Of a DNA stretch of 64,000 nucleotides, positions 14,093 through 31,472 are shown in pieces (position 1 is the first letter of the stretch; each line of letters opens with the position of its first letter). The DNA lies in NCBI GenBank assembly GCA_049968235.1, contig JBMFRC010000006.1, positions 107,866-171,865 of the forward strand. The letters are read 5' to 3'. This stretch comes from Candidatus Hydrogenedens sp. GTDB lineage: Bacteria > Hydrogenedentota > Hydrogenedentia > Hydrogenedentales > Hydrogenedentaceae. The position numbers and the translations under genes were made by a program. Under the pieces are notes generated by a model. It saw only the letters and a program-made list of their open reading frames with translations. It did not search any database and had not been told where the DNA came from.

Positions 14093-14178
14093 TTTAATAT
14101 ACCTTAAATACAGTTGCTTTTATAATTCACACTTTGTTATAAATTATAATTAAACTAAAACACATAAGGAGTACTTTT

Positions 14179-14586
14179 ATGCCATTAATTCAATGGAACG
14201 ATTCTTTAAGTGTCGGCATTCCTTCTATGGATACACAACATCAAAAATTAATCAATATTATAAATCGACTACATGATGCTATGCGTGAAGGAAAAGGGAA
14301 AGATATTATATCCCCCGTATTAACGGAGTTACATAATTATACCGTTACTCACTTTACAGCAGAAGAAAAATTAATGGAACAATGTAAATACAGTGGTCTT
14401 GCCGTTCAGAAACAACAACATAATAATTTTGTCAATCAAATTAAAAAGTATCAGTCTGACTATGAAAAAGGTTCATTAACTCTTCCTCTTTCGGTTTCCA
14501 ATTACTTAAAAGACTGGCTTATTAATCATATTCAGGGTCTGGATAAAAAATATGAGACATCTATGAAATCAGCAGGAATTAAATAG
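14179..14586 (+). CDS. bacteriohemerythrin (hemerythrin HHE cation-binding domain)
   Basis: 135 aa. W-x-D...H...H...E...H...H...D ligand spacing (QWNDSLSVGIPSMDTQHQ...HFTAEEKLM...HNNF...WLINHIQGLDKKY). Confidence 0.75.
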   Translation: MPLIQWNDSLSVGIPSMDTQHQKLINIINRLHDAMREGKGKDIISPVLTELHNYTVTHFTAEEKLMEQCKYSGLAVQKQQHNNFVNQIKKYQSDYEKGSLTLPLSVSNYLKDWLINHIQGLDKKYETSMKSAGIK

Positions 14587-14597
14587 GAGAAATATCT

Positions 14598-15005
14598 ATG
14601 GCTTTTCTCAATTGGAACGATAATTTTAATATTGGAATATTTCAAATTGATGCTCAACATAAAAATCTGGTTAATATTATTAATCAGTTATATGAAGCGA
14701 TGAGTGTAGGGAAAGGAAAAGAAATTATTGGGAAAATTGTAAAAGAATTGGCGGGTTATACAATTACTCATTTTGGCACTGAAGAGAAACTCATGCAGGA
14801 ACATGGCTATCCTGAATTGCCTCAACATAAAAAAGAACATGAACTTTTTGTTAAAAAAGTTCAGGAATTTAATAATGAAATTCAAAAAGGGAATCTTATC
14901 ATTGTTTCTAATGTTGCCAATTTCTTGAAGGAATGGTTGATAAAACATATTCAAGGAACCGATAAGAAATATGGTCCATTTTTAAAGGGAAAAGGGGTAA
15001 AATAG
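14598..15005 (+). CDS. bacteriohemerythrin (tandem paralog)
   Basis: 135 aa, about 50% identical to the preceding ORF, with the same ligand pattern. Confidence 0.75.
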   Translation: MAFLNWNDNFNIGIFQIDAQHKNLVNIINQLYEAMSVGKGKEIIGKIVKELAGYTITHFGTEEKLMQEHGYPELPQHKKEHELFVKKVQEFNNEIQKGNLIIVSNVANFLKEWLIKHIQGTDKKYGPFLKGKGVK

Positions 15006-15083
15006 GAACTGTTATATATACCGTTTTTTAGCATGTTATAACCAATATATTTGAAATGACACTACATTAACTATGAAACCGAC

Positions 15084-16352
15084 ATGTTTGAACCTAAATA
15101 TATTTCGTTATTAATTTTTATTTTATTGTATCTCCTGTTCTTCATCCTGCCTTCGCGTAGAAGTATTACTGCTATTATTGCATCTACTATTATCCTAATT
15201 ACAGGAATAATGGCACCTACAGAATTTTTCTTAGCCATTAACTGGAATGTGATGGGTATTTTTGTAGGTATGCTTTTTCTTGCAGATATTTTTATTGATA
15301 GTCGCTGTCCTGCTTTCTTAGCCACTTATCTCATTCATAAAAAAATGAGCACGCCTGTTGCTTTATTAGTAATTTGTGGACTAGCTTCATTTATTTCTGC
15401 ATTTGTAGAAAATGTTGCTACTGTTCTCATTATCGCTCCTATATGTTTTGAATTGGCAAAACGATTAAAAATTGACCCGCGTGAATTAATAATCGGTATT
15501 GCGATTTCGAGCAATTTACAGGGAACAGCAACTTTAATTGGAGACCCACCCAGTATGCTTTTAGCGGGGTATGTGCATCTTAACTTTTTAGATTTCTTTT
15601 TTTACCATGGTAAACCCGGAATTTTCTTTGCAATACAGATAGGTGCTATTACTTCCTTAACTTTTCTTTACTGGACATTCAAAAAATATAAAAGTGAACA
15701 GGAAGTAAGTATTGAACCTATAAAATCGTGGATACCTACTTTCCTTCTTTTATTGTTAATTTTCCTGCTTGCCCTTGCATCGTTTTTTGAAGAAAGTTTT
15801 TTCACATCCGCAGGATTTATTTGTATGGTAATTGCAGGTATAGGTCTTATCTGGGCAAAGTATACCAGTAAAATCTCTATAATAAATAGCATTAAAGAAC
15901 TCGACTGGGACACTACTTTGTTTCTTCTTGGTGTATTTATAATGGTGGGCACTTTAAATAAATTTGGCTGGACGAACGATATTGCAGAATTAATATACAA
16001 ATATGTGGGAAATAATAAAATTGTGATATATTTTGCTCTTATCATTATATCCATTGTTTTATCTGGATTTATTGATAATGTCCCATATCTCGCAGCAATG
16101 CTACCTATTACAACAATCCTTGCAGAAAAAGGAGGTTTCAATCCTACCTTACTTTATTTCGGCTTGCTTATCGGTGCCAGTCTTGGAGGAAATATAACTC
16201 CTATTGGGGCATCAGCAAATATTGTGGGAACAGGGTTGCTAAAAAAGGAAGGCTATCCTGTATCATTTATGCAATGGATAAAAATTTCCATTCCATTTAC
16301 CCTTATTGCGGTTATCCCCGCATCTATATTTGTTTTATTTATATGGTTATAG
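15084..16352 (+). CDS. ArsB/NhaD-superfamily (YbiR/CitMHS-like) anion permease
   Basis: Polytopic, 422 aa. LIGDPPSMLLAG and internal duplication typical of the ion-transporter superfamily. Confidence 0.7.
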   Translation: MFEPKYISLLIFILLYLLFFILPSRRSITAIIASTIILITGIMAPTEFFLAINWNVMGIFVGMLFLADIFIDSRCPAFLATYLIHKKMSTPVALLVICGLASFISAFVENVATVLIIAPICFELAKRLKIDPRELIIGIAISSNLQGTATLIGDPPSMLLAGYVHLNFLDFFFYHGKPGIFFAIQIGAITSLTFLYWTFKKYKSEQEVSIEPIKSWIPTFLLLLLIFLLALASFFEESFFTSAGFICMVIAGIGLIWAKYTSKISIINSIKELDWDTTLFLLGVFIMVGTLNKFGWTNDIAELIYKYVGNNKIVIYFALIIISIVLSGFIDNVPYLAAMLPITTILAEKGGFNPTLLYFGLLIGASLGGNITPIGASANIVGTGLLKKEGYPVSFMQWIKISIPFTLIAVIPASIFVLFIWL

Positions 16353-16399
16353 GTAAGATAAAATTGAGCATTAATAAATTTCTATCAAGGAGTCTTGCT

Positions 16400-17482
16400 A
16401 TGCCATTATTCTGTTTGCTTATCTCTTCATGCGTTGTTCTACATAATCCTCCTATCCTATCAACTGAAGATTTCATATCAATAGTTCAAAATAGCGGGGG
16501 AACTGTAAACTATATTTTTGAAGATGAACGACCCTTCAAAGAATGCCATGCCTCTACAATAGTCGAAACAGCGGAAGGGAATATCCTATCCGCATGGTTT
16601 GGAGGAACAAAAGAAAAAAATCCAGATGTGGCTATCTGGCTATCCCGATGGGACGGCAAAGAATGGACCACACCTAAAAAAATAGCCAAAGTACGTGAAG
16701 AAGCACATTGGAATCCTGTTCTATTCAAAGACCAGGATAATATTATCTATTTGTTTTTCAAGGTAGGGAAAGATGTACCCATTTGGTCCACTTATTGGAT
16801 GAAAACAGAGGATAACGGAAAGACCTGGTCAGAACCGATCGAACTGGTACCGGGTGATATTGGCGGTAGAGGTCCCGTAAAAAATAAACCTATCATCCTG
16901 CATGACGGGACATGGCTTGCTCCTGCTTCGACCGAAATTAAAGGTTGGCGTTGTTTTGCGGACAGGAGCAATGATAAAGGCGTAACATGGATACGAAGTG
17001 ATGATTGGAATATCGAATCCTCCGGAATTCGTGGGAAAGGCGTTATCCAGCCTACTTTCTGGGAATCTCAGCCTAATTATGTTCATGCACTCATGCGTTC
17101 CACAGGTGGCTGTATTGCCCGCTGTGACTCAGAAGATGGCGGAAAAACATGGGGAAAAGTTTATCGTACCGATTTGCCAAATAACAATAGTGGTATTGAC
17201 CTTATCAAAAATACAGACGGCGTTCTCTGGTTAGTTTATAATCCCATCAGCGGGAACTGGGGACCTCGCAATTCTTTAATGTTTGCATATTCCAGAGATA
17301 ATGGCAAAACATGGACAAATTTCGTTTATCTCGAAAAGAATTTAATCCCCACTCATGAATACTCTTATCCTGCCATTATTACCACACATAAAGGGATTGC
17401 TATTTCTTACACATGGCGTCGAGAACGAATAAAATTCTGGGAAATCCCCAATGATGTCCTAAAAAAATATATAACCCTATAA
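16400..17482 (+). CDS. BNR/Asp-box repeat sialidase-like glycoside hydrolase, lipoprotein
   Basis: I chose the start at ATG 16400 (MPLFCLLISSC lipobox). The track start at 16274 overlaps the permease and is probably wrong. Four Asp-boxes are present: TEDNGKTW, SNDKGVTW, SEDGGKTW, SRDNGKTW. Confidence 0.65.
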   Translation: MPLFCLLISSCVVLHNPPILSTEDFISIVQNSGGTVNYIFEDERPFKECHASTIVETAEGNILSAWFGGTKEKNPDVAIWLSRWDGKEWTTPKKIAKVREEAHWNPVLFKDQDNIIYLFFKVGKDVPIWSTYWMKTEDNGKTWSEPIELVPGDIGGRGPVKNKPIILHDGTWLAPASTEIKGWRCFADRSNDKGVTWIRSDDWNIESSGIRGKGVIQPTFWESQPNYVHALMRSTGGCIARCDSEDGGKTWGKVYRTDLPNNNSGIDLIKNTDGVLWLVYNPISGNWGPRNSLMFAYSRDNGKTWTNFVYLEKNLIPTHEYSYPAIITTHKGIAISYTWRRERIKFWEIPNDVLKKYITL

Positions 17483-17603
17483 TTTCTTCTATCCCTCTGC
17501 AAATGGATATTTACATCCACAACGAATAAATCCGTTGAAACAATTTGTTTTCTATTCGTGTCTTATATGAAACACAAAATTCTCATACTTTAAGGATTTT
17601 ATC

Positions 17604-18917
17604 ATGCTTTCACAGACCCTAAAAATAACTTTCTTTTTTATTTTACTTCTTTGCTTGCTCTCCTTTCCTTATGCCTTTTCTGAACCTGTTTTCAAAGCAG
17701 GCTTTGCAATGGTAGATATTACCCCTCCTGCGGGCATCCCAATGTGGGGGTATGGAGCAAGACATGATTTACCTTCCGAAGGTACAAAATATCCACTGAA
17801 TTTCAAGGTTGTCGTATTTGATGATGGAACAAATCGTCTCGCTATTGGCGGATTGGATTTAGGTCGTTCACCTACACAATGGTCAATGGAAAAAATCACA
17901 GAACGCCTGAAAAAAGAATGTGGCGTTTCTTATGTCATGCTTGCCGGCTCACATACCCATCACGGACCTGTTATAGAACTAATAAATGAACCCAACTGTG
18001 GACAGGGTAAATTTGATAAAGCCATTCAATATGTTGACGAGCTCGAAAACAAGATTTGTACGGCAATATCCGAAGCAACAACAAGACTTATTCCCGCAAA
18101 AATTGGCTGGGCAAGTGAGCAAACTGACTTGAATCGCAATCGTGTATCAAAGAAACCGCAAAAAATGCGAGACCCGGAACTAACCATAATTCGGATAGAT
18201 ACAATAGATGGTAAACCTATTACAGCAATAATTAATTTCTCTGCACACCCAGTACTCGATGATATATTTGACCGTCGCTGGAGTTCCGACTGGGCAGGTA
18301 TTATGCAAAAAAGATTTGAAGAATTATTAAATGTCCCCTGTATATTCCTTCAAGGTTCCACAGGTGATATGTCGCCCAATACCAATGACCAACGAAAAGG
18401 AATGGTCGGATTTGGAAACGCTATCGGAGAATATTCCGCCGAACTTTATAAAAAAATATCAACAACTGTTCCTACACAACCACAAATACAATTCATATCT
18501 GAACGATTTACATACCCTTCCCGCATGGATACAAACAATCCCCTCGTTATGGCTGTTTACAAACAAGGATTTTTCCCGGAACTTATCAACGCACTATTAA
18601 AAGAATTCTCCAATAACACTGTCTCCGTAACCTTATCAACTGCCCTTATAAACAAAGAATTAGCACTTGTTGGTGGTTCCGGCGAATTCTTCTCTGGTCT
18701 TGCCATCCGTCTAAAAACCAATTCACCAGCAAAAAAGACAATATTCTTGGGATATTGCAACGGACATTCCCTTTACATCCCCACTGTAGAAGCGGTCGAA
18801 GAAGGTGGATACGGTGCCGACCCTATGTTTTCATGGGTCCCCCCAGGAACAGGTGAAAACCTAATAGACAAAGCCTGTGCAAACATCAAAGAAATGCTAA
18901 CCCAAACTGCCAATTAA
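17604..18917 (+). CDS. neutral/alkaline ceramidase family protein, secreted
   Basis: Signal peptide. FAMVDITPPAGIPMWGYGAR and LAGSHTHHGP match the neutral-ceramidase N-domain signatures (VDITPP...GYG...SHTHSGP). Confidence 0.75.
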   Translation: MLSQTLKITFFFILLLCLLSFPYAFSEPVFKAGFAMVDITPPAGIPMWGYGARHDLPSEGTKYPLNFKVVVFDDGTNRLAIGGLDLGRSPTQWSMEKITERLKKECGVSYVMLAGSHTHHGPVIELINEPNCGQGKFDKAIQYVDELENKICTAISEATTRLIPAKIGWASEQTDLNRNRVSKKPQKMRDPELTIIRIDTIDGKPITAIINFSAHPVLDDIFDRRWSSDWAGIMQKRFEELLNVPCIFLQGSTGDMSPNTNDQRKGMVGFGNAIGEYSAELYKKISTTVPTQPQIQFISERFTYPSRMDTNNPLVMAVYKQGFFPELINALLKEFSNNTVSVTLSTALINKELALVGGSGEFFSGLAIRLKTNSPAKKTIFLGYCNGHSLYIPTVEAVEEGGYGADPMFSWVPPGTGENLIDKACANIKEMLTQTAN

Positions 18918-19538
18918 TTTTACTTAGTTCGACATTCAACAATCTCTAACAAAAAGCCCCATTTACATCCAGTAATTGTTTACACAATTAATAAATAAAA
19001 CCTTATATCAAAACATCCCATTTTTTAAGCAGGGGCTTTTGGTATGCAAGCGTATTAATGTATAGGCGAAATTTTTTTGCCTCCCTCTCGGATAAATATT
19101 ATTTTTTCATCGGGTATGTGAGAATATGCGTGTTGATGCAATAAAAATGTCTGTATCACAATATTTTTTTATTCATTTATGCGTTTTTTAATTTATCTAG
19201 GACGGATTGATGTATATTTGCGTATTTATTAGTGCGAATGATTATTCGCCACTACATTTTTCTGTGTTCATGATAAATGCATCTTGTGGGAAATTCTATA
19301 AATTTGAATAGGGATTGCTGGTAAGGATTATATTGTTTTCGATAAGATAATCGAATAAAATTTATTAGATAGACAGAGGAAATAACATTAAAAGTCATAA
19401 AAAGAGGAATATATTAGGTCTCCACTAAGGGGATAAGTTTTAATTATCCATTTTGTTATCTATCTGGTCGCATTATTTTTTCTATCTATCCAATTTTGTT
19501 ATATCTATCTCTCCTGTTTAACCCATTACAAAATAATT

Positions 19539-19572
19539 AGCCCTTGTTGTTATTTTTTTTAGAACAAGGGCT
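19539..19572 (-). terminator. hairpin (AGCCCTTGTT / AACAAGGGCT, 14-nt loop) just downstream of the pntB stop. Candidate intrinsic terminator.
   Basis: 10-bp perfect inverted repeat 25 nt past the pntB stop, followed on the minus strand by an A/T-rich stretch. The loop is large, so the structure is only moderately convincing. Confidence 0.4.
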
Positions 19573-19596
19573 ATGAAATTTTGCGATGATATATTA

Positions 19597-21015
19597 TTAC
19601 TCTTGTGCTTCTTTGAATTGATTAATGATTGCTGTTAAGGTTTGTTTAGCGTCTCCAAAAATCATGCGTGTATTTTCTTTGAAGAAGAGCGGGTTTTCTA
19701 CGCCGGAGAAACCGGAAGCAAGAGACCGCTTTAAGACAAAACAGGTTTTGGCATAATCTACATTAATAATAGGCATTCCGTAGATGGCACTCTTGGGGTC
19801 TTCTCTTGCGGAGGGATTAACAACATCGTTTGCACCGACTACGATACAAACATCTATCGTGTCAATTATCGGATTAATATCATCCATCTCCAGCAATTGG
19901 TCATAAGGGACATTGGCTTCTGCTAATAGGACATTCATGTGTCCTGGCATACGACCGGCAACAGGGTGAATGGCGTATTTTACTTCCGCTCCATTTTTTT
20001 CTAATAGGTCTGCTAATTCTTTTACTACATGTTGTGCTTGTGCAACTGCCATGCCATAGCCCGGAACAAAAACTACAGAACGAGCTGCTTCCAATACGAA
20101 ATAGGCATCTTCAGGTGTTAATGCTTTCACTTCACCGGTCACAGAAGTGCTCACTGCTCCTTCCGATGAACCAAAACCGCTGAACAGCACATTTGCAAGG
20201 GAACGGTTCATAGCTTTGCACATAATCGCTGTAAGGATAATACCACTGGCACCGACTAAGGAGCCTGCTACGATTAATACGGTGTTATTTAATACGAAAC
20301 CGGAGGCACATGCTGCCATACCTGAATAACTGTTTAATAGACATATCACAACAGGCATATCTGCCCCGCCGATAGGGATGGTTACTAAAATACCAAGGAT
20401 ATTTGCTAATATCATTAGCAATATAACTGCGGGATAAATTACAGTACCATTGGGACTTGCAAAGAAAAGGACTCCCATCAGGATGCCTAATCCTAATACA
20501 ACAGCATTTACTAACTGTTGTCCCTTAAATAGGATGGGCTTCCCTTGAATTTTTTCTTCTAACTTTGCGTAGGCAACCATACTTCCTGAGAATGTAACTC
20601 CACCAATCAGCATTGCTAAATAGGTGGCAAGTATTAAAACAATATTCTCAAGGCTATATTCACCATAACCTTTGCCGGTATAGGTAACATGGAAATCCGA
20701 CCAACCAACTAACATACTGGCAAGTCCACCTGTTCCATTGAAAAATGCAACGAAGCCGGGCATGGAGGTCATCGGAACTTTAATTGCAGCAATGGCTCCA
20801 ATAACAGTTCCGATAAGTCCACCGATTATTATCCATTCGTAGGATTTAATTACCGGATTTACAAGCGTAACAGCAATAGCAAGGCACATTCCTAATCCGG
20901 AGATGATGTTTCCTTTAATGGCGGTTGTCGGTTTACTGAGCATTTTCAGCCCAAGAATAAAAGTAACCGCCGATACCATATAGGCGACTTCAATTAATAT
21001 TTTAATCTCGTTCAC
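19597..21015 (-). CDS. pntB: NAD(P) transhydrogenase subunit beta
   Basis: 472 aa. N-terminal polytopic membrane domain plus C-terminal dIII NADP(H)-binding domain (GYGMAVAQAQH...VGANDVVNP). Confidence 0.9.
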   Translation of the reverse strand: MNEIKILIEVAYMVSAVTFILGLKMLSKPTTAIKGNIISGLGMCLAIAVTLVNPVIKSYEWIIIGGLIGTVIGAIAAIKVPMTSMPGFVAFFNGTGGLASMLVGWSDFHVTYTGKGYGEYSLENIVLILATYLAMLIGGVTFSGSMVAYAKLEEKIQGKPILFKGQQLVNAVVLGLGILMGVLFFASPNGTVIYPAVILLMILANILGILVTIPIGGADMPVVICLLNSYSGMAACASGFVLNNTVLIVAGSLVGASGIILTAIMCKAMNRSLANVLFSGFGSSEGAVSTSVTGEVKALTPEDAYFVLEAARSVVFVPGYGMAVAQAQHVVKELADLLEKNGAEVKYAIHPVAGRMPGHMNVLLAEANVPYDQLLEMDDINPIIDTIDVCIVVGANDVVNPSAREDPKSAIYGMPIINVDYAKTCFVLKRSLASGFSGVENPLFFKENTRMIFGDAKQTLTAIINQFKEAQE

Positions 21016-21017
21016 GG

Positions 21018-21509
21018 TTATTTCCTTTCCTTCCCTTTAAACATTCTTAACATTCTGTCTGTAACAAGATAACCACCTGCAACATTTATCATGGCACAAA
21101 TCATTGCGATAACACCGATACCTATTAATAACACTGAATCTCTCCCCTGTCCTGCTGCCAGACAGGCACCGACAACTGTAATTCCTGATATAGCATTTGA
21201 CCCGGACATAAGGGGCGTATGAAGTTGGGATGGAACTTTGGTCAATATTTCCACTCCGAGAAATACCGCTATCAAAAAAGTAAATAGAAGTAATGTCATG
21301 GGGTTTAATGCCCTGGTACCGGGTGATGTTTGTTCTGTTGCACATTCCGTAGCAGTAATAGCGGGTATCATTCCTGTCCCTGCATTACTATCCGCTTTTA
21401 CTTTTGTGAAACTTCCTAACAATAAAAGAGATAAGATGGAAGCAAACACTACCAAACTTATCCATCCCATCAGTGGAATTTTATTTAGTTTTATTACATT
21501 TTTTTTCAT
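21018..21509 (-). CDS. pntAB: NAD(P) transhydrogenase subunit alpha part 2 (membrane)
   Basis: Small hydrophobic protein between pntAA and pntB. ATGA overlap with the pntAA stop. The true start could be a later Met. Confidence 0.7.
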   Translation of the reverse strand: MKKNVIKLNKIPLMGWISLVVFASILSLLLLGSFTKVKADSNAGTGMIPAITATECATEQTSPGTRALNPMTLLLFTFLIAVFLGVEILTKVPSQLHTPLMSGSNAISGITVVGACLAAGQGRDSVLLIGIGVIAMICAMINVAGGYLVTDRMLRMFKGKERK

Positions 21510-22639
21510 TGTGAACTCCTTGCCTTTTGTATTAATTCATTTCTCAATTTGCCTTCATGAATTATCAAACATCCATTTAGAATTTCATCTTCTATTTTGT
21601 AATTGAACGATTTTGTTTCTTTATTCCAGAAATGTTCTATGAGATTCCCTAAATTAGCAGAATACATTTGACTTGCATGAACCGCCACGCGTCCCGGAAA
21701 ATTCTCTGCTCCAATCACAATAACATTGTCTATTATCACCTCTTCGCCGGGTTTTGAACCTTCGACATTTCCTCCCGTTTCTGCTGCAAGGTCTACAATA
21801 ACACTGCCCGGCCTCATTGCTTTTATCATATCATTTGTAACCAATAGCGGAGCCTTCTTACCGAAAACCTGAGCGGTTGTTATTACAACATCAGACTGGG
21901 CTATAACTTTTTTCATGCCTTCCCGTTGTTTTTGTTTCTGTTCCTCTGTGAGTTCCAGTGCGTAACCATCTTTTGTTTGTCCGGTAGGTCCCACATCAAT
22001 CTTCACAAATTTTGCCCCTAATGATAAGACCTGTTCTTCTACCACAGGTCTTGTATCGAATGCTTCCACTCGTGCACCTAATCGTTTTGCGGTGGCTATT
22101 GCCTGCAACCCAGCAACACCACAACCGATAATAAAAATGCGAATGGGCTTTAAAGTTCCCGCCGGTGTCATCATCATTGGAAATACCATCGGCAACCTAT
22201 TTGCAGCAACTATAACCGCAACATAACCTGCTAAATTTGCCTGTGAACTTAACGCATCCATCTTCTGGGCTAATGTGGTTCGTGGAATCATTTCCATCGA
22301 AATCGCGTTAACTTCACTTTTAATAAATTCATCCTGTATAGCAAAATCAAAGAAAGGTTCTAAATAACTAATATGCAAAGAACCTTTCTTTTGTAATTTA
22401 ATTTCCTCGATAGGGGGTTTTCTTAATCGTAAAACAATATCTGCGTTTTTCAATCCATCTTCACGTGATACCACCTTTGCACCTGCTTCAGTATATTGTG
22501 CATCTGAATAACCACAATTCCACCCCATATTGGATTCAATACATACCTCTGCTCCCAACTTGACTAATTTTTTTACTGTATCGGGAACTATAGGTATGCG
22601 AGTCTCTTTAGAGTAGACTTCCTTTGGAATAAAAATCAT
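21506..22639 (-). CDS. pntAA: NAD(P) transhydrogenase subunit alpha part 1 (dI, Ala-dehydrogenase/PNT fold)
   Basis: 377 aa. Rossmann IIGCGVAGLQAIATAKRLGARV and AlaDh/PNT N- and C-domains. Confidence 0.85.
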   Translation of the reverse strand: MIFIPKEVYSKETRIPIVPDTVKKLVKLGAEVCIESNMGWNCGYSDAQYTEAGAKVVSREDGLKNADIVLRLRKPPIEEIKLQKKGSLHISYLEPFFDFAIQDEFIKSEVNAISMEMIPRTTLAQKMDALSSQANLAGYVAVIVAANRLPMVFPMMMTPAGTLKPIRIFIIGCGVAGLQAIATAKRLGARVEAFDTRPVVEEQVLSLGAKFVKIDVGPTGQTKDGYALELTEEQKQKQREGMKKVIAQSDVVITTAQVFGKKAPLLVTNDMIKAMRPGSVIVDLAAETGGNVEGSKPGEEVIIDNVIVIGAENFPGRVAVHASQMYSANLGNLIEHFWNKETKSFNYKIEDEILNGCLIIHEGKLRNELIQKARSSQ

Positions 22640-22808
22640 AAAAATACCCTCTCAATCATTTAATTATTCGTTTGAAAAAGAATTTATCTTTTTACCAAAT
22701 TAAATATAGTATAAGAGAACGTGAGTAAAAAGTTCAACTTATCAAGCAATATACTTACCATTAAATAATTAGAAATAATACAATGATTTTTAAAAAATTA
22801 AAAAATAC

Positions 22809-22838
22809 TTGACAAACTACTATATATTGTGCTACTAT
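22809..22838 (+). promoter_or_regulatory. sigma70-like promoter (TTGACA-N18-TACTAT)
   Basis: Perfect -35 TTGACA at 22809..22814 and TACTAT at 22833..22838. It lies upstream of the structured element and the Kdo-kinase-like genes. Confidence 0.4.
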
Positions 22839-22844
22839 ATATTT

Positions 22845-23012
22845 GGTGTTTGGGAATTGCGTATGCCCGATTCCTCAGACCAGCCCAAAACTTCAATATA
22901 AAAATTGAATATGAATTTTCCTCTTGCGCCTACAGAGCAATTTCTCAGACACCCCCCGCAAATATAGCGGCAGGAAGCCCAAACCTGCCGCTCCTCCCTT
23001 TCAATGTTTCTC
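22845..23012 (+). ncRNA. candidate structured 5' leader / small RNA (unclassified)
   Basis: Downstream of the promoter. A direct repeat ATTyCTCAGACmasCCC occurs at 22870..22886 and 22940..22956. A GC hairpin GCGGCAGG-AAGCCCAAA-CCTGCCGC lies at 22967..22991. The 5' GTTTGGG (22848..22854) is complementary both to CCCAAAAC (22884..22891) and to the hairpin loop CCCAAAC. Only short spurious ORFs exist on either strand. Confidence 0.3.
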
Positions 23013-23084
23013 TTTTTTATTTCCATGTATGTGTTTTATAATTTATTATTCTTTTATTACTTACAAATGAGATGTAATAACAAT

Positions 23085-23891
23085 ATGCCTATACAATTAC
23101 CTGCTGTTTATAAAATATTTTCAAATAACATGGGGCATATAGTTTTAAGAGAAGATTTATCCCATGACCTAATTGAAATACTATCTGCATTATTATCTAA
23201 TTCTACACCGGACAAATTAATCCTTTTATCGGGTGGCAGAAATAATGTATTCTTATACAATTTCAATACTCACTTTTCCATTTTGATAAAGCAATATTCG
23301 CATGGTGGCATCTATAGAAATATTTTTCCCCGATATTATTTTTTTTCTAATCGTTTTTTGAATGAATTTTATATGTATATAAATATATTAAAAAATAATT
23401 TATCTGTGCCTGAATATCTTGGGGGATTTTGGTCAAAAAAATTTGGACTTTACAAGTGTGGAATAATCACGAAGTACATCCCGTATACATATACATTAGA
23501 CGAATATTTAAATAATAATTTCTATTCAATTGAAGAAAAATATGACATATTAATCAAATGTGGAAAAATTATTAAGAATATGCACGATATAGGAATTTTT
23601 CATAATGATTTACAAATTCGAAATTTATTAATCAGTTCTACAGAAAAATCTGTTTATATAATTGATTTTGACAATGCAAAAAAGGTATCCACATTAAATA
23701 GTTATTATTGTTCACAAAATTTATTACGATTAAAACGCTCTTTTCTAAAAAGGGGTATCAGTACAGAATTTTTTAATATCCTGTTAAATGGTTATGGTAT
23801 TTCTCATCTCTCTTTCCTTGCAGAAGTCTTTTCATTTCCTCATATACAATGGATAAATTATAAAAATCGTTATATTAATAAAAACAAATAG
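23085..23891 (+). CDS. Kdo/LPS-core kinase family (KdkA/WaaP-like) protein
   Basis: KQYSHGG, IGIFHNDLQIRNLLIS and YIIDFDNAKK match the Kdo-kinase motifs (K-x-Y-x-x-GG, HxDLxxxN, IDFD). The track start at 23004 is upstream. I prefer the ATG at 23085 (or 23067). Confidence 0.65.
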   Translation: MPIQLPAVYKIFSNNMGHIVLREDLSHDLIEILSALLSNSTPDKLILLSGGRNNVFLYNFNTHFSILIKQYSHGGIYRNIFPRYYFFSNRFLNEFYMYINILKNNLSVPEYLGGFWSKKFGLYKCGIITKYIPYTYTLDEYLNNNFYSIEEKYDILIKCGKIIKNMHDIGIFHNDLQIRNLLISSTEKSVYIIDFDNAKKVSTLNSYYCSQNLLRLKRSFLKRGISTEFFNILLNGYGISHLSFLAEVFSFPHIQWINYKNRYINKNK

Positions 23892-23897
23892 ATAATA

Positions 23898-24677
23898 ATG
23901 AAATACAGTAAGAAATCAAAATATCATATTTGGTCAAATGAAGATAACTTTGACCCAGATGTTTTTTTGACTGAAATATTCAATACAGGAAAAGTATTAA
24001 AAGAAACAGATAAAACTTCTTCTCTCCAATGGTATTCTTACTTTGTAAAAAAGACAAACTATTCTCTTTCTGAAGGGATATTCAGGCATCTCTTTTTATC
24101 AAGCCGTTGTAGAAGTGCATGGAATATTAGCAACTACTTAATAGATAATCATATACCTACACCAAAACCTGTTGCATATCTTGAATTGTTAAAATATTCA
24201 TTACCTTATCAGCATTTTTTCATTTCAGAATATCTACGCGGTAGTTATAATATTGAGGTATTCATTAGAGATGGTATTTATTTGAGTAAAGGTATAACAT
24301 TAGAATACTTCTTTGAGATAATGAAAAGATTTCTTATTCTTTTGTGGGATAAAGGAGTATATCATAAAGACCTATCTGGTAAAAATCTATTGACAATGGA
24401 AGGAGAACCTATATATTTAATTGATTTAGATGCTACCTATTTGATAAATCATTTTGCGATAAAATATAAAATAAGGAATTTAACACAGATTTATGATTCC
24501 TTCTGTGATTTCGTTAATGAAAAAATACTGAAAGATTTCATTTTCACAATGCTTGATGATTTATCATTAAAGGAAATAAAGATAATCTATACTAAGATAC
24601 AACAACTCCAGAAGCAACGAAGAAACCAACATTTAAGGAATATTCAGCGGTATAATAAAAAGGATAATTTATCATAA
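23898..24677 (+). CDS. Kdo/LPS-core kinase family protein (tandem paralog)
   Basis: GVYHKDLSGKNLL and YLIDLDATY. Same kinase-like fold signatures as the previous gene. Confidence 0.65.
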   Translation: MKYSKKSKYHIWSNEDNFDPDVFLTEIFNTGKVLKETDKTSSLQWYSYFVKKTNYSLSEGIFRHLFLSSRCRSAWNISNYLIDNHIPTPKPVAYLELLKYSLPYQHFFISEYLRGSYNIEVFIRDGIYLSKGITLEYFFEIMKRFLILLWDKGVYHKDLSGKNLLTMEGEPIYLIDLDATYLINHFAIKYKIRNLTQIYDSFCDFVNEKILKDFIFTMLDDLSLKEIKIIYTKIQQLQKQRRNQHLRNIQRYNKKDNLS

Positions 24678-25945
24678 TGGAAAAAGAGAATGAAATTACA
24701 AAATTAGATTGGCTGGACGACAATATCCGGAATTACATTCAATCCATATATCGAGTTCAGCACTTTTATTCAAATTTAACGGATATTGAACAACTTATTG
24801 TAATTATTACAGAAGAATGTAAAAAAGCATGTAATGCGGAAGCAGGTTCTTTACTACTCTATGATGAGAAAAAGGAAGAACTCTTTTTTCAGGTAACTTT
24901 AGGTCCGGTGGGTTCTGAAATAGTAAAGAAAGAAATTCGCATACCTGTAAACTGTGGTATTGCCGGGGAAGTTGCAAGAACAAAAAGACCTTTGATTGTT
25001 AATGATGTCAAAAACGATTCTCGTTTTTTCCCGGGGGTAGACATAGCAACTCAGTTTTCGACACGGAATATTCTTGCAGTCCCATTGATTGACCGCCAAC
25101 GATTAATTGGCGTTATTGAGATGGTTAATAAAATAGGTAATGCACCCTTTTCGCATGAAGACCTCCGTTTCCTGGAAATATTAGCATCATGGGCTGCTTC
25201 TGCTGTTGTAAGTTCACAATTAATACAAGAGAAATTACAGGCGGAACGATTTGCTACAATAGGTTATACATTAACCGCATTAGCACATCATTTGAAGAAT
25301 ATACTTACGGGAATGTTAACCAGCACAGAACTTATCGAAAAATCATTGAACCAAAAAAATTATGAGGTTGTTCATAAAGCCTGGCCTGTCCTTAAAAGGA
25401 CTTCCCTTTATGTTTTTGAGTTTGTCAAAGATTTATTATTATTTTCAAAATCTCGAACCCCACAAAAAGTATATTGTCATTTAGAAGATATAACCAATAA
25501 GGTATCCGAATTTTTTTTCGACCTTTTTTCAAACCGTCAAATCGAACTCATCATTGATATTTCTCGGGTGAAGGACAAAGTATTCCTTGACCCCAACGGC
25601 ATTATTCATTGTTTAACCAACTTACTTCTAAATTCTGGTGAAGCAGTTCCAGAAAAGAAAGGAGTTGTAAAAATTGAAGGGGAATTGTCTCAAAACAAAG
25701 ATTTGATTATTACAGTATCTGATAATGGAAAAGGAATTCCATCGGAAGATATTGAACATATTTTTGAACCGTTTTTTACAACAAAGGGTTATCGGGGAAC
25801 TGGTTTAGGTTTGTCTGTTACCCAAAAGATAGTAGAGGAACATGGCGGTAGAATTAAGGTTGTTAGCGAAAAGGACAAAGGAACAAAATTTATTATTACA
25901 CTTCCCCAGACAAATACAGAAATAAATAGAAAGGAGACAACTTAA
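24677..25945 (+). CDS. GAF-domain sensor histidine kinase (cytoplasmic, orphan)
   Basis: GAF region (GSLLLYDEKKEELFF...CGIAGEVARTKRP...VPLIDRQRLIGVIEM). H-box TALAHHLKNILTGM. HATPase DNGKGIP...FEPFFTTK...GTGLGLSV. TAATG overlap with the upstream gene. Confidence 0.8.
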   Translation: MEKENEITKLDWLDDNIRNYIQSIYRVQHFYSNLTDIEQLIVIITEECKKACNAEAGSLLLYDEKKEELFFQVTLGPVGSEIVKKEIRIPVNCGIAGEVARTKRPLIVNDVKNDSRFFPGVDIATQFSTRNILAVPLIDRQRLIGVIEMVNKIGNAPFSHEDLRFLEILASWAASAVVSSQLIQEKLQAERFATIGYTLTALAHHLKNILTGMLTSTELIEKSLNQKNYEVVHKAWPVLKRTSLYVFEFVKDLLLFSKSRTPQKVYCHLEDITNKVSEFFFDLFSNRQIELIIDISRVKDKVFLDPNGIIHCLTNLLLNSGEAVPEKKGVVKIEGELSQNKDLIITVSDNGKGIPSEDIEHIFEPFFTTKGYRGTGLGLSVTQKIVEEHGGRIKVVSEKDKGTKFIITLPQTNTEINRKETT

Positions 25946-25948
25946 GCA

Positions 25949-26215
25949 ATGAAACAATTTAAAAACCTTGAATCAGTAGGATGGATTTTCTGGGCGGTTT
26001 GTAGTGTTTTATTACTTGTTCCGAATTACTTTCTCTCTGGGTTACTGCTGTATGATAACTCCCTTGGTGCTTATATAGGTTTCACTATAGGAATGTCTGC
26101 TGTTATAGGTGCCGTTATTGCATGGGTTGTCAACGAAATTCTTTATAGGATAAATCTTGCAAAATACAAAGAAACAAAGAAGAGAGAAAGAAAAAAGAAA
26201 AAGAAAGCCAGTTAA
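25949..26215 (+). CDS. small membrane protein with a poly-Lys tail
   Basis: 88 aa, two TM segments, C-terminal KETKKRERKKKKKAS. Confidence 0.4.
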   Translation: MKQFKNLESVGWIFWAVCSVLLLVPNYFLSGLLLYDNSLGAYIGFTIGMSAVIGAVIAWVVNEILYRINLAKYKETKKRERKKKKKAS

Positions 26216-26238
26216 ATGGTTTATTTTGGAGAACAGCC

Positions 26239-27717
26239 TTGAAACTACTTGATTTGCTTGATTATGTGGAAAAAAATCCGAAAGATTATGAAAAACGTTG
26301 GAAATTAGCAAAGAAACTGTATCAAAACAAAGATTATACATTAGCATTAGAACATTTGAAGGTGCTTATAAATGAATGGGAGTGCCATATCAATGTTTAT
26401 CGGTTCTTATCTGCCACATTATATCGTCTCGGAAAATATGAAGAATCTATAAATGAGTTAAAAAAAGCCATTAAAAAATGGGATAAAGAACCCGGACTAT
26501 ATGAACAATTAGGAAGAGTATTGATTTCATCCGGGAAAATTGAAGAGGCAAAAAAAGTTTATGAAAAACTTGCTGAAATTTGTCCTGAACATAAATGGGC
26601 ACAAACGACGGTATCACGAATAGAAAGTTTTTTGAGTAAAAAACATGTTCGAAAGACACCCTTTCCGTTTACTTTTGGCTCTGATTTCGATTTACTCCCT
26701 GAATCTATCTGTAAGCGTTGTGGAGCAGAAAATCAGGGGTATATTGACCGTTGCTGGAAATGTGGAGAAATACTAACATCTGAAACAAATCCGTCCGATG
26801 TAACTACTACTGAAATCTGTTTAAACCCCGTTACTATATTAACACCAGAAATCATAACGCTTCTTCTTGGATTGGTTACTATTTCATTTATATCTATAAA
26901 TATTTTTATGTCTCTCAAGTTTTTTTTAGGAGATTACAAATCCGTTCATGTTAGTTTGACCTTCTGGGATATTTATCGGTATGACCTTTTCCCTGCTCGC
27001 TTCCTTACCAGTATTATTCTACTTTTCATTTCACCTATTTTTATCAAGTTAGGGCTAAACATTACAGGTTTACGAGATAAAATTCCTTATAATCTAATCG
27101 TTTTAACAGGACTGGTTATTGCTTCTTTTATCAATTTAGCATCATGGTTATCCAAACCTTTATTTTTATGGGGCTTTATACTGGTTCCAATCTTTTCTTT
27201 CCTTGTTATTTTCGGAACATTTGCCATATCTCTTATAAAAACACTAAATCTTTGTTTATTTCAGATGTTTATGTTATTCCTATCAACTGTTATTATTTTT
27301 AGTGCTGTTGAATCTCATATCCTGAATACCTTCATAAATCCTTTTACTCAAATTCCTACTGTTGCCCGCTTCTTCAAATACCAGTATATACAACCACCCC
27401 ACACGATAGAATTAAATAGTCCGGATGGTTCCCCTATAATCAAAAATATATCCTTTGATAAAACAGGTTCTTATTGGCTTGACATGAGAGCCAATAAAAT
27501 GAAGATAAACCTATTTTTAGACAACCCCGACACATTCATCCTTGAAGTTAATAAAGGTGAAACAAAACCTATTATCTACCAAAAAAGTAAAGATAATAAA
27601 TGGTCTGCGATCTGCTTTGTAAATACAGATGAAATCTTTACGATTAAAATCTCTACGGAAAATAAAACTCCATTTGTTGCCCGAATACAAAGTCTTTTTA
27701 TTTTAAGTCCCCAGTAG
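26239..27717 (+). CDS. TPR-repeat / zinc-ribbon / polytopic membrane protein (TTG start)
   Basis: N-terminal TPR-like helices, a CKRCG...CWKCGE zinc ribbon, then about 6 TM helices and a C-terminal soluble domain. No in-frame ATG near the start, so TTG at 26239 is assumed. Confidence 0.45.
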   Translation: MKLLDLLDYVEKNPKDYEKRWKLAKKLYQNKDYTLALEHLKVLINEWECHINVYRFLSATLYRLGKYEESINELKKAIKKWDKEPGLYEQLGRVLISSGKIEEAKKVYEKLAEICPEHKWAQTTVSRIESFLSKKHVRKTPFPFTFGSDFDLLPESICKRCGAENQGYIDRCWKCGEILTSETNPSDVTTTEICLNPVTILTPEIITLLLGLVTISFISINIFMSLKFFLGDYKSVHVSLTFWDIYRYDLFPARFLTSIILLFISPIFIKLGLNITGLRDKIPYNLIVLTGLVIASFINLASWLSKPLFLWGFILVPIFSFLVIFGTFAISLIKTLNLCLFQMFMLFLSTVIIFSAVESHILNTFINPFTQIPTVARFFKYQYIQPPHTIELNSPDGSPIIKNISFDKTGSYWLDMRANKMKINLFLDNPDTFILEVNKGETKPIIYQKSKDNKWSAICFVNTDEIFTIKISTENKTPFVARIQSLFILSPQ

Positions 27718-29332
27718 AGAGCAAAAATTCTCGTGCAATTTTATTGTCTGGGAAGCGATACAGACATTCGCGATACCATTTTATACTCTCTTCTTTTTCA
27801 TCTAATTCTTCTGCACATCTACCTAATAATAAATAAATATTTCCATCATCTATTTTTGTAAGGGCTTCTTTCAAAACTTTGTAAGCGTTATAGTAATCTT
27901 TTTTTCTTATCAATTCTTGAGCATAACCTTCATACATAGCATAAGTTGCAAATTTATAACTTACAAGATTTCGATATTTTTCTTCACAATCCTGCCCTAA
28001 TATTAGTAGTTTTTCTGCTTGCCGAAGTTTATAGTCGGGAACCCATAATTTATAAGTAAGAAATACAATAGATATAAGTCCGAAAACAGAAAGAATAAAT
28101 CTTGTTTTCGTGTTAGCATTCAATAACTTATTAATTTGTATATTTTCCCTTTTGAACATTCTTTGTTTCTCATTACACAATGACAACAACGCTACGACCA
28201 GATGAGAGGAACTAATTAAAATCGGGTTTAAAAGAGAAACTAATATGAATACCAACCATACATAAGGATTTCTATAAATAAAAATAGGAGAAAGATAAAA
28301 TAAACTTACAAATATAAGTCCGGATACTCCTGTTTCCGATAACAACTCAAGTATGTCATTATGGGCATGTAAAGTCAATAGTTCATTCCGAATATGCATA
28401 CTTCCATAACTTGAATGTAAGGCATCAGCCAGATATTTCGGACTCCAATAATAAAAATTTCCCCAACCCACACCTAAAAACGGATTAGATAAAAACATTC
28501 GAATAGAACCATCGTATATCCACAAACGCACACGAAATCCCACATCCATATCAGAAAAACTATACCTTAAACGCTCATATATAAATGGTAATGCAAGTAA
28601 CATTCCCAATAACATAGATACCAAAATGTATGTGTTTTTTTTATTAAACCCTCTATTTTCTTTATATATATTTGTGAAATAAAAAGTCATTATTATTAAG
28701 ATAGAAAACCATGAACTCCGTGAATTGCTTAAAATTAGTCCGCATCCCAAAACAAAAAAACTAAGAAACTTAAACATGTCTCTCATTGGAAACTTATCCC
28801 AGCGAACCAGAATACCTACCATCACCATAGCGATATATGTTCCAGCAAGATTTTGATTTCCGAAAACAGAATACAACTGTTTGTAAAATGAATAATTTGG
28901 AAATAAAACAGGTAACAAATCGAGATATTGCACAATTAATGAAATAGCGACAAATACCCCAGATAATAAAATCCCATACTCTATATATGTTTCATATTTT
29001 CCATCCCTATTTAAATCGGATATTAAAACAAGTGTAATAAAAACTAAAAACAACTCCATAGAACGGAGTAATGTTTGTTCTGGAACTTTCGCATAAAAAA
29101 AAGTTAAAAATAAATATAAATTTAGGATAAAAAAGAAAATGAGAGGTATAGGTGTAAATAATCTTTCTCTATTTTTCAGGAAGTAAGGTAACAATAATAT
29201 TAAAAAGATACTTAACATAATCTCTTTTGGATAAAGAAATGATGTAAATTCAAAAGAAAATACAATCGGAGGAATAAGTAAAGTGAAAAGTAGAATAATT
29301 CCAACTACTTTTTCCTTCCCCACTAAATTCAT
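27698..29332 (-). CDS. O-antigen ligase/polymerase-like (Wzy_C family) membrane protein with a C-terminal TPR domain
   Basis: About 11 TM helices with a large periplasmic-loop region (LSNSRSSWFSILII...). C-terminal TPR helices. 20-nt convergent overlap with the previous gene. Confidence 0.55.
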   Translation of the reverse strand: MNLVGKEKVVGIILLFTLLIPPIVFSFEFTSFLYPKEIMLSIFLILLLPYFLKNRERLFTPIPLIFFFILNLYLFLTFFYAKVPEQTLLRSMELFLVFITLVLISDLNRDGKYETYIEYGILLSGVFVAISLIVQYLDLLPVLFPNYSFYKQLYSVFGNQNLAGTYIAMVMVGILVRWDKFPMRDMFKFLSFFVLGCGLILSNSRSSWFSILIIMTFYFTNIYKENRGFNKKNTYILVSMLLGMLLALPFIYERLRYSFSDMDVGFRVRLWIYDGSIRMFLSNPFLGVGWGNFYYWSPKYLADALHSSYGSMHIRNELLTLHAHNDILELLSETGVSGLIFVSLFYLSPIFIYRNPYVWLVFILVSLLNPILISSSHLVVALLSLCNEKQRMFKRENIQINKLLNANTKTRFILSVFGLISIVFLTYKLWVPDYKLRQAEKLLILGQDCEEKYRNLVSYKFATYAMYEGYAQELIRKKDYYNAYKVLKEALTKIDDGNIYLLLGRCAEELDEKEESIKWYRECLYRFPDNKIAREFLLSTGDLK

Positions 29333-29350
29333 AGATATACCCTGTAATTA

Positions 29351-30244
29351 TTATATTCTTATTTTACTTATATGCTTCTTTAACAAACTAAGAAAAGTTT
29401 TTTCAGTTTTTGACATGTATAAAAATCGTGGATAAATACACACATAAGGAATGGTAGGTGCTTTTTTGATTCTTATTATTTCTACTTTTTCTTGCCAGTC
29501 TACAGCCACCATTCTTGGAACAAAAGATATACCAAATCCTTCTGCAACATACTTCATAATTACATGAAAAGACCCACCATCAATAACACATTTCGGTTCT
29601 ATTTTAAGCGTATTTAAGTATTTATTAATTATTCGTCCCGTCCTTGTTTTTACATCTATCATAACGATAGATTCATTATGCAATTCATAAATTATATTGT
29701 TCGTATTTTTTTTTATAAAAGGATGCTTTCTAGAGGTTACAAGGTAAATGGGGTCCTCACATATCTTTACTTCTTTTAAGTTATTATGTCCTACAGGTTG
29801 TGTAACAACACCAATATTAATTTCACCCTTGTATACCATATTTTCTATTTCATCTGAAGAACGGGTTATGACTGATAACTGGATATGGGGATACTTTTGT
29901 AAAAATTCTCGAATTACTTTTGGCAATAGATGAAATGCAAAAGTATCACTTGTCCCTATTTTTAATTCTGAAGAAAATCCCTGTGTTGCTTCCTGAAAAA
30001 GCATGTTAAATTTTTTCTGCATTAATGTAAATTCTTTTGCCAACTCATAAAAATTTTTTCCTAATGGAGTCAGGCATTTCCTTCTTCGGTCAAATAGTTC
30101 TCCTCCTAGGTTTTCTTCAATACTTTTTATTCGCTGACTTAAGGCAGGTTGTGTCCTCCCTGTTTTTTCTGCAGCTTTCCCAAATGACCCGGTTTCTACC
30201 AACGCACAGAAACATTGTAATGCATCGTAAGAAAAAATATCCAT
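29351..30244 (-). CDS. LysR-family transcriptional regulator
   Basis: N-terminal wHTH FCALVETGSFGKAAEKTGRTQPALSQRIKSIEENLG plus a LysR substrate-binding domain. Confidence 0.8.
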   Translation of the reverse strand: MDIFSYDALQCFCALVETGSFGKAAEKTGRTQPALSQRIKSIEENLGGELFDRRRKCLTPLGKNFYELAKEFTLMQKKFNMLFQEATQGFSSELKIGTSDTFAFHLLPKVIREFLQKYPHIQLSVITRSSDEIENMVYKGEINIGVVTQPVGHNNLKEVKICEDPIYLVTSRKHPFIKKNTNNIIYELHNESIVMIDVKTRTGRIINKYLNTLKIEPKCVIDGGSFHVIMKYVAEGFGISFVPRMVAVDWQEKVEIIRIKKAPTIPYVCIYPRFLYMSKTEKTFLSLLKKHISKIRI

Positions 30245-30253
30245 AAGTTTTAC

Positions 30254-30268
30254 TTATAGTTTTTATAA
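30254..30268. promoter_or_regulatory. LysR-type T-N11-A-like dyad TTATA-GTTTT-TATAA in the divergent lysR/purM intergenic region
   Basis: Perfect 5-bp inverted repeat 10 bp upstream of the LysR start codon. Confidence 0.3.
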
Positions 30269-30404
30269 TTAAAATTCATTAGAATTATACCTTAATATAT
30301 GCTATTATATCTCCAATATTCTGAACAAGTTTGTATTCAATGTGAAAGTATTATACAAAAGATTGCCTTAAAATTATTACTTATGATAGTAAAGGAAACT
30401 TCTA

Positions 30405-31472
30405 ATGGATGAACAGTCAAAATTAAGTTATAAAGATGCTGGTGTTAATATTGATGTAGCCAATGAAGCCGTTAATGAAATAAAAGAATTGGTAAAGAGG
30501 ACTTTTAATGACCAGGTTTTATCTAACATTGGTTTGTTTGGCGGTTTATTTCAACCTGACTTGAATGGGATAGAAGAACCCGTTCTGGTGTCAAGTATTG
30601 ACGGTGTTGGAACCAAAATAAAACTTGCCATTATGGCAAATAAACACGATACCGTTGGTATAGACCTTGTTTCACACTGTGTAAATGATATACTGGTTCA
30701 GGGAGCCAAACCACTTTTCTTTTTAGATTATATTGCTATGGGAAAACTAAATCCTACCACAATTGTTGAAGTGGTAAAAGGATTAACATGGGGGTGTGGT
30801 CAGGCAGGATGTGCTTTGATTGGTGGAGAAACAGCAGAAATGCCTGATGTGTATAAACAGGATGAATATGATTTAGTCGGGACGATTGTAGGTATTGTAG
30901 ACCGTAAAAAAATTATTGATGGGAGCAACATTCAGGCAGGGGATATTATTCTTGGTTTGGCATCATCTGGACTTCATACCAATGGATATACACTTGCAAG
31001 AAAAATATGCTTCGATATTGCCAAACTAAAATTAGAAGATACTTTTCCCGGGACAAATCAATCTGTATACGACACATTAATGGCTCCTCATATTTGTTAT
31101 TCTAAAATTATGCAAATTGTTATAAAACTCGCTGATGTGCGAGGTATGGCTCACATAACCGGCGGAGGAATTACCGAAAATCTACCGAGAATCCTTCCCG
31201 AAGGTATTGGAGCGGAAATAGACCTCTCTTCATGGCAGGTCCCCCATTTATTTTATTTCTTAAAAGAAACAGGCAATGTTGATGACATGGAGATGCTTCG
31301 AGTTTTTAATATGGGTATCGGCTTACTATTTATAATTCCGGAAGACCATTTACCAAAAGTATTAAAGGCGTTTGAGCAAGCCGGTGTTTCTTCATACATT
31401 GTAGGTAAAACGATTCCAGGAGAAAGAAAAGTATACTATAAAGGTAATTTGAAATATGGTAAACCGAATTGA
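30405..31472 (+). CDS. purM: phosphoribosylformylglycinamidine cyclo-ligase (AIR synthetase)
   Basis: 355 aa. DAGVNIDVANEAV...GLFGG...VSSIDGVGTK, classic PurM. Confidence 0.9.
   Translation: MDEQSKLSYKDAGVNIDVANEAVNEIKELVKRTFNDQVLSNIGLFGGLFQPDLNGIEEPVLVSSIDGVGTKIKLAIMANKHDTVGIDLVSHCVNDILVQGAKPLFFLDYIAMGKLNPTTIVEVVKGLTWGCGQAGCALIGGETAEMPDVYKQDEYDLVGTIVGIVDRKKIIDGSNIQAGDIILGLASSGLHTNGYTLARKICFDIAKLKLEDTFPGTNQSVYDTLMAPHICYSKIMQIVIKLADVRGMAHITGGGITENLPRILPEGIGAEIDLSSWQVPHLFYFLKETGNVDDMEMLRVFNMGIGLLFIIPEDHLPKVLKAFEQAGVSSYIVGKTIPGERKVYYKGNLKYGKPN

Follow-up and report, generated by a model that had tools for sequence, protein, structure and literature searches.

A lineage-specific candidate small RNA beside pntA in Candidatus Hydrogenedens

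C-rich small RNAs (sRNAs) such as RsaE/RoxS of Bacillota pair with G-rich Shine-Dalgarno regions. Here we describe an RNA candidate of comparable character from a 64,000-nucleotide (64-kb) stretch of Candidatus Hydrogenedens sp. (assembly GCA_049968235.1, contig JBMFRC010000006.1, forward-strand positions 107,866 to 171,865). We call this whole stretch the window, and all coordinates refer to it unless another locus is named. The proteins encoded nearby are of the type found in Candidatus Hydrogenedens, phylum Hydrogenedentota. The RNA gene is single-copy and spans 22845 to about 23002 on the + strand, with a predicted transcript of ~150-160 nucleotides (nt). It lies in a 445-nt intergenic region between pntA (21506-22639, - strand), its divergent neighbour, and a Kdo/WaaP-family kinase gene. 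The window is AT-rich, and the RNA forms a G+C island (40-49% at about 22850-23000) between flanks of 18-30% G+C.

Compared on general knowledge, this RNA and RsaE/RoxS are both short, have their own promoter, display unpaired C-rich motifs in loops or linkers, end in a 3' hairpin, and are lineage-restricted and highly conserved. However, the Hydrogenedens RNA matches RsaE/RoxS in neither sequence nor structure, is longer (about 155 nt), and comes from a different phylum. It also has a multi-motif domain closed by a helix, P1, carries duplicated CUCAGAC and AGCCCAAA motifs, and has no canonical U-tail. Rfam 15, searched with the window at gathering thresholds and again at E ≤ 10, returned no relevant family for the RNA, in agreement with the earlier note on this DNA, which had recognized no matching riboswitch, signal recognition particle (SRP), or 6S signature. 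The divergent orthologs (L029 to L031) gave no relevant Rfam match at E ≤ 5, and a narrow full-text literature search on non-coding RNA in Hydrogenedentes and on the RNA's core found nothing relevant. The RNA is thus presented as a new family of a familiar kind: a previously undescribed, lineage-specific bacterial sRNA candidate. It is unusual in being better conserved than pntA, in having an invariant promoter spacer that contains a direct repeat, in its two duplicated motif pairs, and in a conserved hairpin that lacks a U-tail. We favor the reading of an sRNA that is transcribed independently, exposes C/U-rich motifs, and is separate from the kinase operon, and give this a probability of roughly 55%.

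Homologs of the kinase and of pntA, together with two exact-pattern scans, yielded 31 loci, among which the element occurs in 16 distinct versions. Each of these 16 orthologous loci carries a single copy. The 64-kb window holds no second copy, and no match to the RNA was found in viral contigs. All homologs of the RNA come from Candidatus Hydrogenedens-type metagenome-assembled genomes (MAGs) and metagenomes. The exact core occurs in only five species-representative genomes of a GTDB-based collection, and the family is therefore narrow. Conservation begins sharply at the -35 box and stops at a C/U-rich tail past the 3' hairpin, and the remaining intergenic DNA is unalignable. Across 13 close variants, the promoter and RNA are 82-97% identical to the window copy, compared with 79-86% for the pntA coding sequence, 65-81% for the kinase coding sequence, and 44-73% for the flanking spacer. 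Judged by these identities, the RNA is better conserved than the adjoining protein genes, including the housekeeping gene pntA. Two more distant copies, L029 and L030, score 87 and 75 bits and retain 72-73% identity over promoter and RNA. A third, L031, from a higher-G+C genome, is recognizable only by the covariance model (32.7 bits, E about 2e-7).

One of the homologous loci (L020) lies on contig CAZJTZ010000017.1, which is labelled 'uncultured Nitrospirales bacterium' yet has a Hydrogenedens-type pntA-RNA locus with a pntA 89% identical. This MAG is probably mis-binned or mislabelled.

A promoter-like sequence stands directly before the RNA. The promoter scan located a -35 hexamer TTGACA (22809-22814), where conservation sets in and which is the same in L024 and L031, and a -10 hexamer TACTAT (22833-22838) after an 18-nt spacer. 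The -10 is preceded by TGTG (22828-22831; TGTG-C), which we read as an extended -10 of the TRTG type. TTGACA-18-TACTAT with TGTG is kept in 16/16 orthologs, so the near-consensus promoter proposed earlier is both present and conserved. From its sequence, we predict a strong sigma-70-type promoter belonging to the RNA itself, immediately upstream of its 5' end. The repeat finder also reported a perfect 12-nt direct repeat, CTACTATATATT, at 22817-22828 and 22832-22843, with 15 nt from one copy to the next. Even L031, the distant ortholog of higher GC, keeps the spacer core ATATATTGTG unchanged. This constraint exceeds what a -35/-10 pair needs, and the spacer with its repeat may therefore be an operator atop the extended -10. 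No further copies of the spacer motif, or of GTCTGAG, were found in the 64-kb window. Note that the scan of the region gave seven promoter sites against 4.9 expected by chance, and a 7-mer repeat with a promoter match in 200 nt is, alone, within chance. The locus rises above chance because the block from the -35 box to the CU-rich tail is nearly invariant while the flanking intergenic DNA cannot be aligned.

The conserved block is non-coding and structured. Open reading frames (ORFs) of 70 amino acids (aa) (+ strand, 22829-23041) and 63 aa (- strand, 22835-23026, Cys-containing) can be called mechanically across the region. Among orthologs, the central part contains indels of 1, 2, 8, and 10 nt, which are not multiples of 3, and the open frames switch or vanish on both strands; a long - strand ORF is missing from L029 and L030. 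No conserved ORF, start codon, or ribosome-binding site (RBS) was found among the orthologs on either strand. The earlier statement that the region has no credible ORF therefore stands on frame-breaking indels and on frames that orthologs do not keep. Folding energies relative to shuffled sequences give z = -2.7 for the + strand and z = -1.2 for the - strand, and the substitutions in P1, seen from the opposite strand, become A.C mismatches. We assign the RNA to the + strand because of the G.U pairs in P1 and in the 3' hairpin P5, the promoter orientation, and the fold z-scores. The earlier proposal of a promoter-driven, structured RNA is supported, on the + strand.

Two helices recur among the orthologs. 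P1 is a 10-bp closing stem in which 5' GGUGUYUGRG pairs with CUCAGACACC. Its 5' arm, GGTGTTTGGG (22845-22854), begins at the predicted 5' end of the RNA (about 22845, 7 nt past the -10), so that the onset of P1 coincides exactly with the transcription start expected from the conserved promoter. The 3' arm, GCAATT-T-CTCAGACACC (22937-22953), includes the second CTCAGAC repeat (22944-22950). Essentially all 16 sequences form pairs 1-10; the one exception is the first base pair in one sequence, which does not pair. Changes are one-sided only: G.U becomes C-G or A-U in all four variant sequences. These helix counts come partly from a model-fitted alignment; a MAFFT alignment agrees for the 13 close sequences. 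In close relatives P1 can be extended to 16 bp through a clade-specific 5' extension, AATTGC (22855-22860), which is absent from L029-L031. The extension (AAUUGC/GCAAUU) is 100% paired and has a bulged nucleotide at 22943 that varies between U, A, and C. RNAalifold favors a multibranch alternative made of GGAAUUG:CGAUUCC and UUGC:GCAA (P2/P4). The 16-bp P1 and this alternative are indistinguishable in close relatives, and neither survives in L029-L031, where the 10-bp P1 remains. In minimum free energy (MFE) and consensus folds, nt 1-10(16) pair with about nt 93-109, and the 3' hairpin stands separate. Inner pairs of the window's MFE fold (GUA:UAC and others) were discarded, as L007 and L015 do not keep them.

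P5 is the 3' hairpin, formed by AGCGGCAGG (22966-22974) and CCTGCCGCT (22984-22992), 9 bp with 100% complementarity; the strong GC hairpin noted before is thus a perfect stem. It is paired in 16/16 sequences, with compensatory changes at 4/9 pairs. The basal A-U is replaced by G-C in five sequences, a C-G by U-A in L024 and again in L029/L030, and L031 has two further compensatory pairs. The loop AAGCCCAAA (22975-22983) keeps (G/A)CCCAA across orthologs. The view that this hairpin is more than a plain terminator holds up: the stem shows covariation, the loop sequence GCCCAA is kept, and in most orthologs no U-tract follows next to it. As described earlier, a T-rich run does begin 16-20 nt past the stem (about 23011-23013, to 23018). 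It is missing or displaced in L010, L015, L030, and L031, and this unconserved position means that it is not a canonical terminator tail.

Between and beyond these helices lie highly conserved segments. CTCAGAC repeat 1 (22874-22880), which differs in L010 and L030, is likewise complementary to the 5' arm. It is followed by the first copy of the AGCCCAAAAC motif (22882-22891), whose AGCCCAA is invariant in 15 sequences, is also present in L031, and is predicted to be mostly unpaired. A variable central hairpin, TTCAAT/ATTGAA (22892-22909), appears as an RNAalifold helix. This helix is weak, pairing in 85-87% of cells; some of its changes are two-sided, and its length varies. A U/C-rich stretch, TTTTCCTCTTGCGCCTACAG (22916-22935), has the core GCGCCTA, invariant in 13/13 close sequences; L029, L030, and L031 also keep the core, there within a hairpin loop. 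The C-rich linker CCCCGC (22954-22959) is invariant in 15 sequences and reads ACCCCGC in L031, with an unpaired probability of 0.5-1.0. The C/U-rich, G-free tail TCCTCCCTTTC (22992-23002) is anti-Shine-Dalgarno-like and likely marks the predicted 3' end region; every ortholog is rich in pyrimidines here and has a CCUCC-like core. Two direct repeats tie these segments together. The first, ATT(C/T)CTCAGAC, occupies 22870-22880 and 22940-22950; the 70-nt spacing given earlier is right, whereas the 17-nt length is not, since the copies match over 11 nt at 91% identity and contain no clean 17-mer. The second, AGCCCAAA(A/C)CT (22882-22892 and 22976-22986), came from the repeat finder and is new relative to the earlier note. 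The equilibrium ensemble places the 5' arm and repeat 2 in paired regions and leaves repeat 1 (unpaired probability 0.64-0.83 in the full RNA), AGCCCAA, CCCCGC, the hairpin loop, and the tail largely unpaired.

We propose that the RNA would be transcribed from its own sigma-70-type promoter, divergently from pntAB, and would fold into a P1-closed domain (10 bp, or 16 bp in close relatives) plus the covarying GC hairpin. This fold would leave a set of invariant segments single-stranded, namely CUCAGAC repeat 1, AGCCCAA, UUUUCCUCUUGCGCCUA, CCCCGC, the loop GCCCAA, and the CCUCC-like tail. The anti-Shine-Dalgarno-like segments among them (UUUUCCUCUU, CCCCGC, GCCCAA, and CUCCUCCC) could then act in trans by pairing with G-rich translation-initiation regions of mRNAs. 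Toggling of the 5' arm between the CUCAGAC repeats might change which segments are exposed.

Several observations weigh against an independent, trans-acting sRNA. RNAduplex runs against the initiation regions of pntA and the downstream genes gave long, loop-ridden duplexes with no consistent site, and an exact-complement search of the 64-kb window returned only AT-rich or generic Shine-Dalgarno-like matches. The arms of P1 are almost invariant and their changes one-sided, so that its support is consistency, with no true covariation. All homologs belong to one narrow lineage, which weakens arguments from synteny. No conserved U-tract follows the hairpin, so that read-through into the downstream operon is possible and the 3' end is a prediction. 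Finally, in 15/16 loci the RNA lies upstream of the same kinase operon in the same orientation, an arrangement that fits a leader too.

The exact-complement search also picked out AAAGGGAGGAG (58861-58871, - strand), an exact 11-nt complement of the CU-rich tail just downstream of tRNA-Ser(CGA). It is probably just a strong Shine-Dalgarno-like sequence. That tRNA gene (58923-59015, - strand) is the only Rfam or ARAGORN match in the window.

The foremost rival makes the RNA a 5' leader that acts in cis on the downstream operon (kinases, or an MFS transporter in L031), either riboswitch-like or a protein-dependent attenuator; we consider it doubtful. In one variant, the C-rich, G-poor tail would be a Rho loading site whose use is set by which CUCAGAC repeat binds the 5' arm. 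Riboswitches and Rho-dependent leaders such as those of mgtA and ribB, from general knowledge, likewise combine a P1-closed domain, invariant unpaired nucleotides, a hairpin, and a C-rich, G-poor stretch, and attenuation leaders have one arm with two mutually exclusive pairings. The highly conserved unpaired nucleotides inside P1 resemble the layout of an aptamer, the two alternative helices differ by only 1.6-9 kcal/mol, and read-through is plausible given the hairpin's lack of a conserved U-tract. The position upstream of the kinase genes that the earlier note reported is confirmed (15/16 versions), but the leader role it suggested is weakened by what lies between the RNA and those genes, and by what lies there when the kinases are absent.

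A TTATAAT box (23036-23042, + strand), about 40 nt upstream of the kinase ATG at 23085, is invariant (9/9) within a diverged spacer, and the distance from this TATAAT to the RNA varies among orthologs. Its counterpart is TGTATAAT in L029 and L030, and TTCAAA-18-TATAAT in L024. By its sequence and position, the box is probably the kinase operon's own -10, without a good -35. L024 alone has a canonical intrinsic terminator straight after the tail (2513-2543 of that locus; CCTTAAC-ATACAA-GTTGAGG, a 7-bp stem followed by UUUGUUUUUUU). Its TTCAAA-18-TATAAT promoter (2603-2632) lies about 60 nt past this terminator and before the kinase ATG. In L031 (2209-3001), the gene downstream encodes an MFS sugar transporter, functionally unrelated to the kinases, and the kinase operon is absent here, whereas the RNA and its promoter remain beside a pntA that is 74% identical. 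The adjacency of RNA and pntA thus appears, from L031, to be the conserved one, and the RNA is always divergent from pntA. This box, the terminator and promoter of L024, and the MFS neighbor of L031 all argue that the RNA is not simply a kinase leader.

Other features of known leaders are also missing. No segment complementary to either P5 arm was found in the RNA, so there is no antiterminator, and the only alternative pairings are those of the 5' arm with the CUCAGAC repeats. Both P1 arms are invariant in sequence, which is unusual among riboswitch P1 stems, and no Rfam riboswitch or leader class matched even at E ≤ 10. The RNA may have a 3' end of its own: it carries the covarying GC hairpin, but without a conserved U-tract, L024 has an extra canonical terminator, and the conserved -10 box of the downstream operon follows. 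Hairpin-plus-U-run terminators number 21 in window positions 12001-32000 (20 kb), against 11.7 expected from shuffles, and few fall at gene ends. Since gene ends show no clear enrichment of canonical terminators, the missing U-tail is indecisive either way. Transcription in this organism may often terminate without canonical intrinsic terminators.

An unlikely second rival is a protein-binding or housekeeping RNA, a sponge or scaffold in which the two CUCAGAC and two AGCCCAAA copies are binding sites and no base-pairing regulation occurs. The duplicated motifs are invariant in sequence and do not covary, the strong and very conserved promoter is typical of abundant RNAs, and conservation exceeds that of neighboring housekeeping protein genes. 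6S RNA (SsrS) has a similar size (about 150-200 nt), a strong conserved promoter, a single copy, and high conservation. In contrast to 6S, the 5' end of the Hydrogenedens RNA pairs internally (about nt 100-109) and not with the 3' end, and no rod with a central bubble forms. For the window RNA, the 6S models of Rfam gave no match even at E ≤ 10; nor did SRP, CsrB-type, or other Rfam families match. GGA-loop repeats of the CsrA type are absent, and the distribution is confined to one lineage.

It is also conceivable, if rather improbable, that the RNA works as a new class of conformational switch, its invariant 5' arm toggling, under the control of a ligand or protein, between two identical CUCAGAC partners and thereby controlling either Rho-dependent read-through into the envelope or transport genes downstream or the exposure of trans-acting seeds. 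Given the fixed position beside pntAB, such a toggle could possibly be linked to NAD(P)H balance. The switch first put forward was a different one, in which GTTTGGG paired either with CCCAAAAC or with CCCAAAC of the hairpin loop. We rejected both pairings: they are not maintained in homologous loci, where the only two informative substitutions break them without a compensating change. These 5'-arm substitutions (alignment columns 6 and 9) are U>C in L005, G>A in L015, and both together in L029-L031. Pairing with the CUCAGAC repeats is retained or strengthened by the same changes. When folded only through repeat 1, every ortholog forms a local hairpin between the 5' arm and repeat 1 (-7.5 to -15.7 kcal/mol). 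If repeat 2 is blocked, the domain loses just 1.6-9 kcal/mol of stability relative to the MFE fold. The local hairpin and the small energy gap make a kinetic or regulated toggle between repeats possible. In these folding models, mutually exclusive helices of the 5' arm with repeat 1 or repeat 2 are therefore possible but unproven.

We regard conservation at the DNA level as very improbable. Here, the block would serve pntAB and the kinases as a common regulatory region, or be an RfaH/ops-like site (JUMPStart) of a lipopolysaccharide (LPS) operon, and RNA structure would be incidental. The invariant promoter spacer with its 12-nt direct repeat could be an operator. JUMPStart/ops elements recruit RfaH upstream of LPS and polysaccharide operons; the element here likewise stands upstream of genes of the LPS-kinase family, and (G/A)GCGGTAGG occurs in three orthologs: the 5' arm of P5 reads GGCGGTAGG in L024 and AGCGGTAGG in L029/L030, resembling what we take to be the E. 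coli ops core, GGCGGTAG. However, GGCGGTAGnnTG is not conserved, as GGCGGTAG is found only in L024 and GCGGC(A/G)G in 13/16. The majority form is GCGGCAGG, and the variable C/T of the arm covaries with G/A opposite, so that the constraint is on pairing; we judge the ops likeness of the arm to be a chance resemblance. The G.U pairs are strand-specific. Conservation reaches about 160 nt past the promoter, a structured RNA as opposed to a 12-nt DNA signal, and the RNA is retained without kinases in L031. Least credible of all is a small protein from the 70-aa or 63-aa ORF, both of which exist mechanically but are effectively refuted as coding by the frame-breaking indels, the shifting frames, and the lack of a conserved start or RBS.

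The downstream operon comprises two kinases, a GAF histidine kinase, an 88-aa ORF, and a TPR membrane protein. The first kinase gene starts at ATG 23085 and encodes 268 aa, according to gene calls in two same-species MAGs, with which the homologs agree. A 295-aa ORF from ATG 23004 (23004-23891) was rejected as the kinase gene, as homologs and MAG calls begin at 23085. This longer ORF overlaps the tail of the RNA and the kinase promoter. Automatic annotation using it would mask the 3' region of the RNA, a likely annotation error that is corrected here. The 88-aa ORF (25949-26215), which follows the GAF histidine kinase, keeps its position in nearly all syntenic loci and has a weak, sub-threshold Pfam match to SieB.

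Hydrogenedentota is an uncultured phylum for which no regulatory RNA turned up in Rfam or in our narrow full-text search. This RNA alone changes no general concept. The locus is a well-defined, testable sRNA candidate: its promoter is close to consensus, its structure is clear, and it is more conserved than an adjoining housekeeping gene. It offers an entry point for metatranscriptome mining and target prediction, and an entry to the promoter and terminator rules of the phylum, including extended -10 elements of the TRTG type and hairpins without a U-tail.

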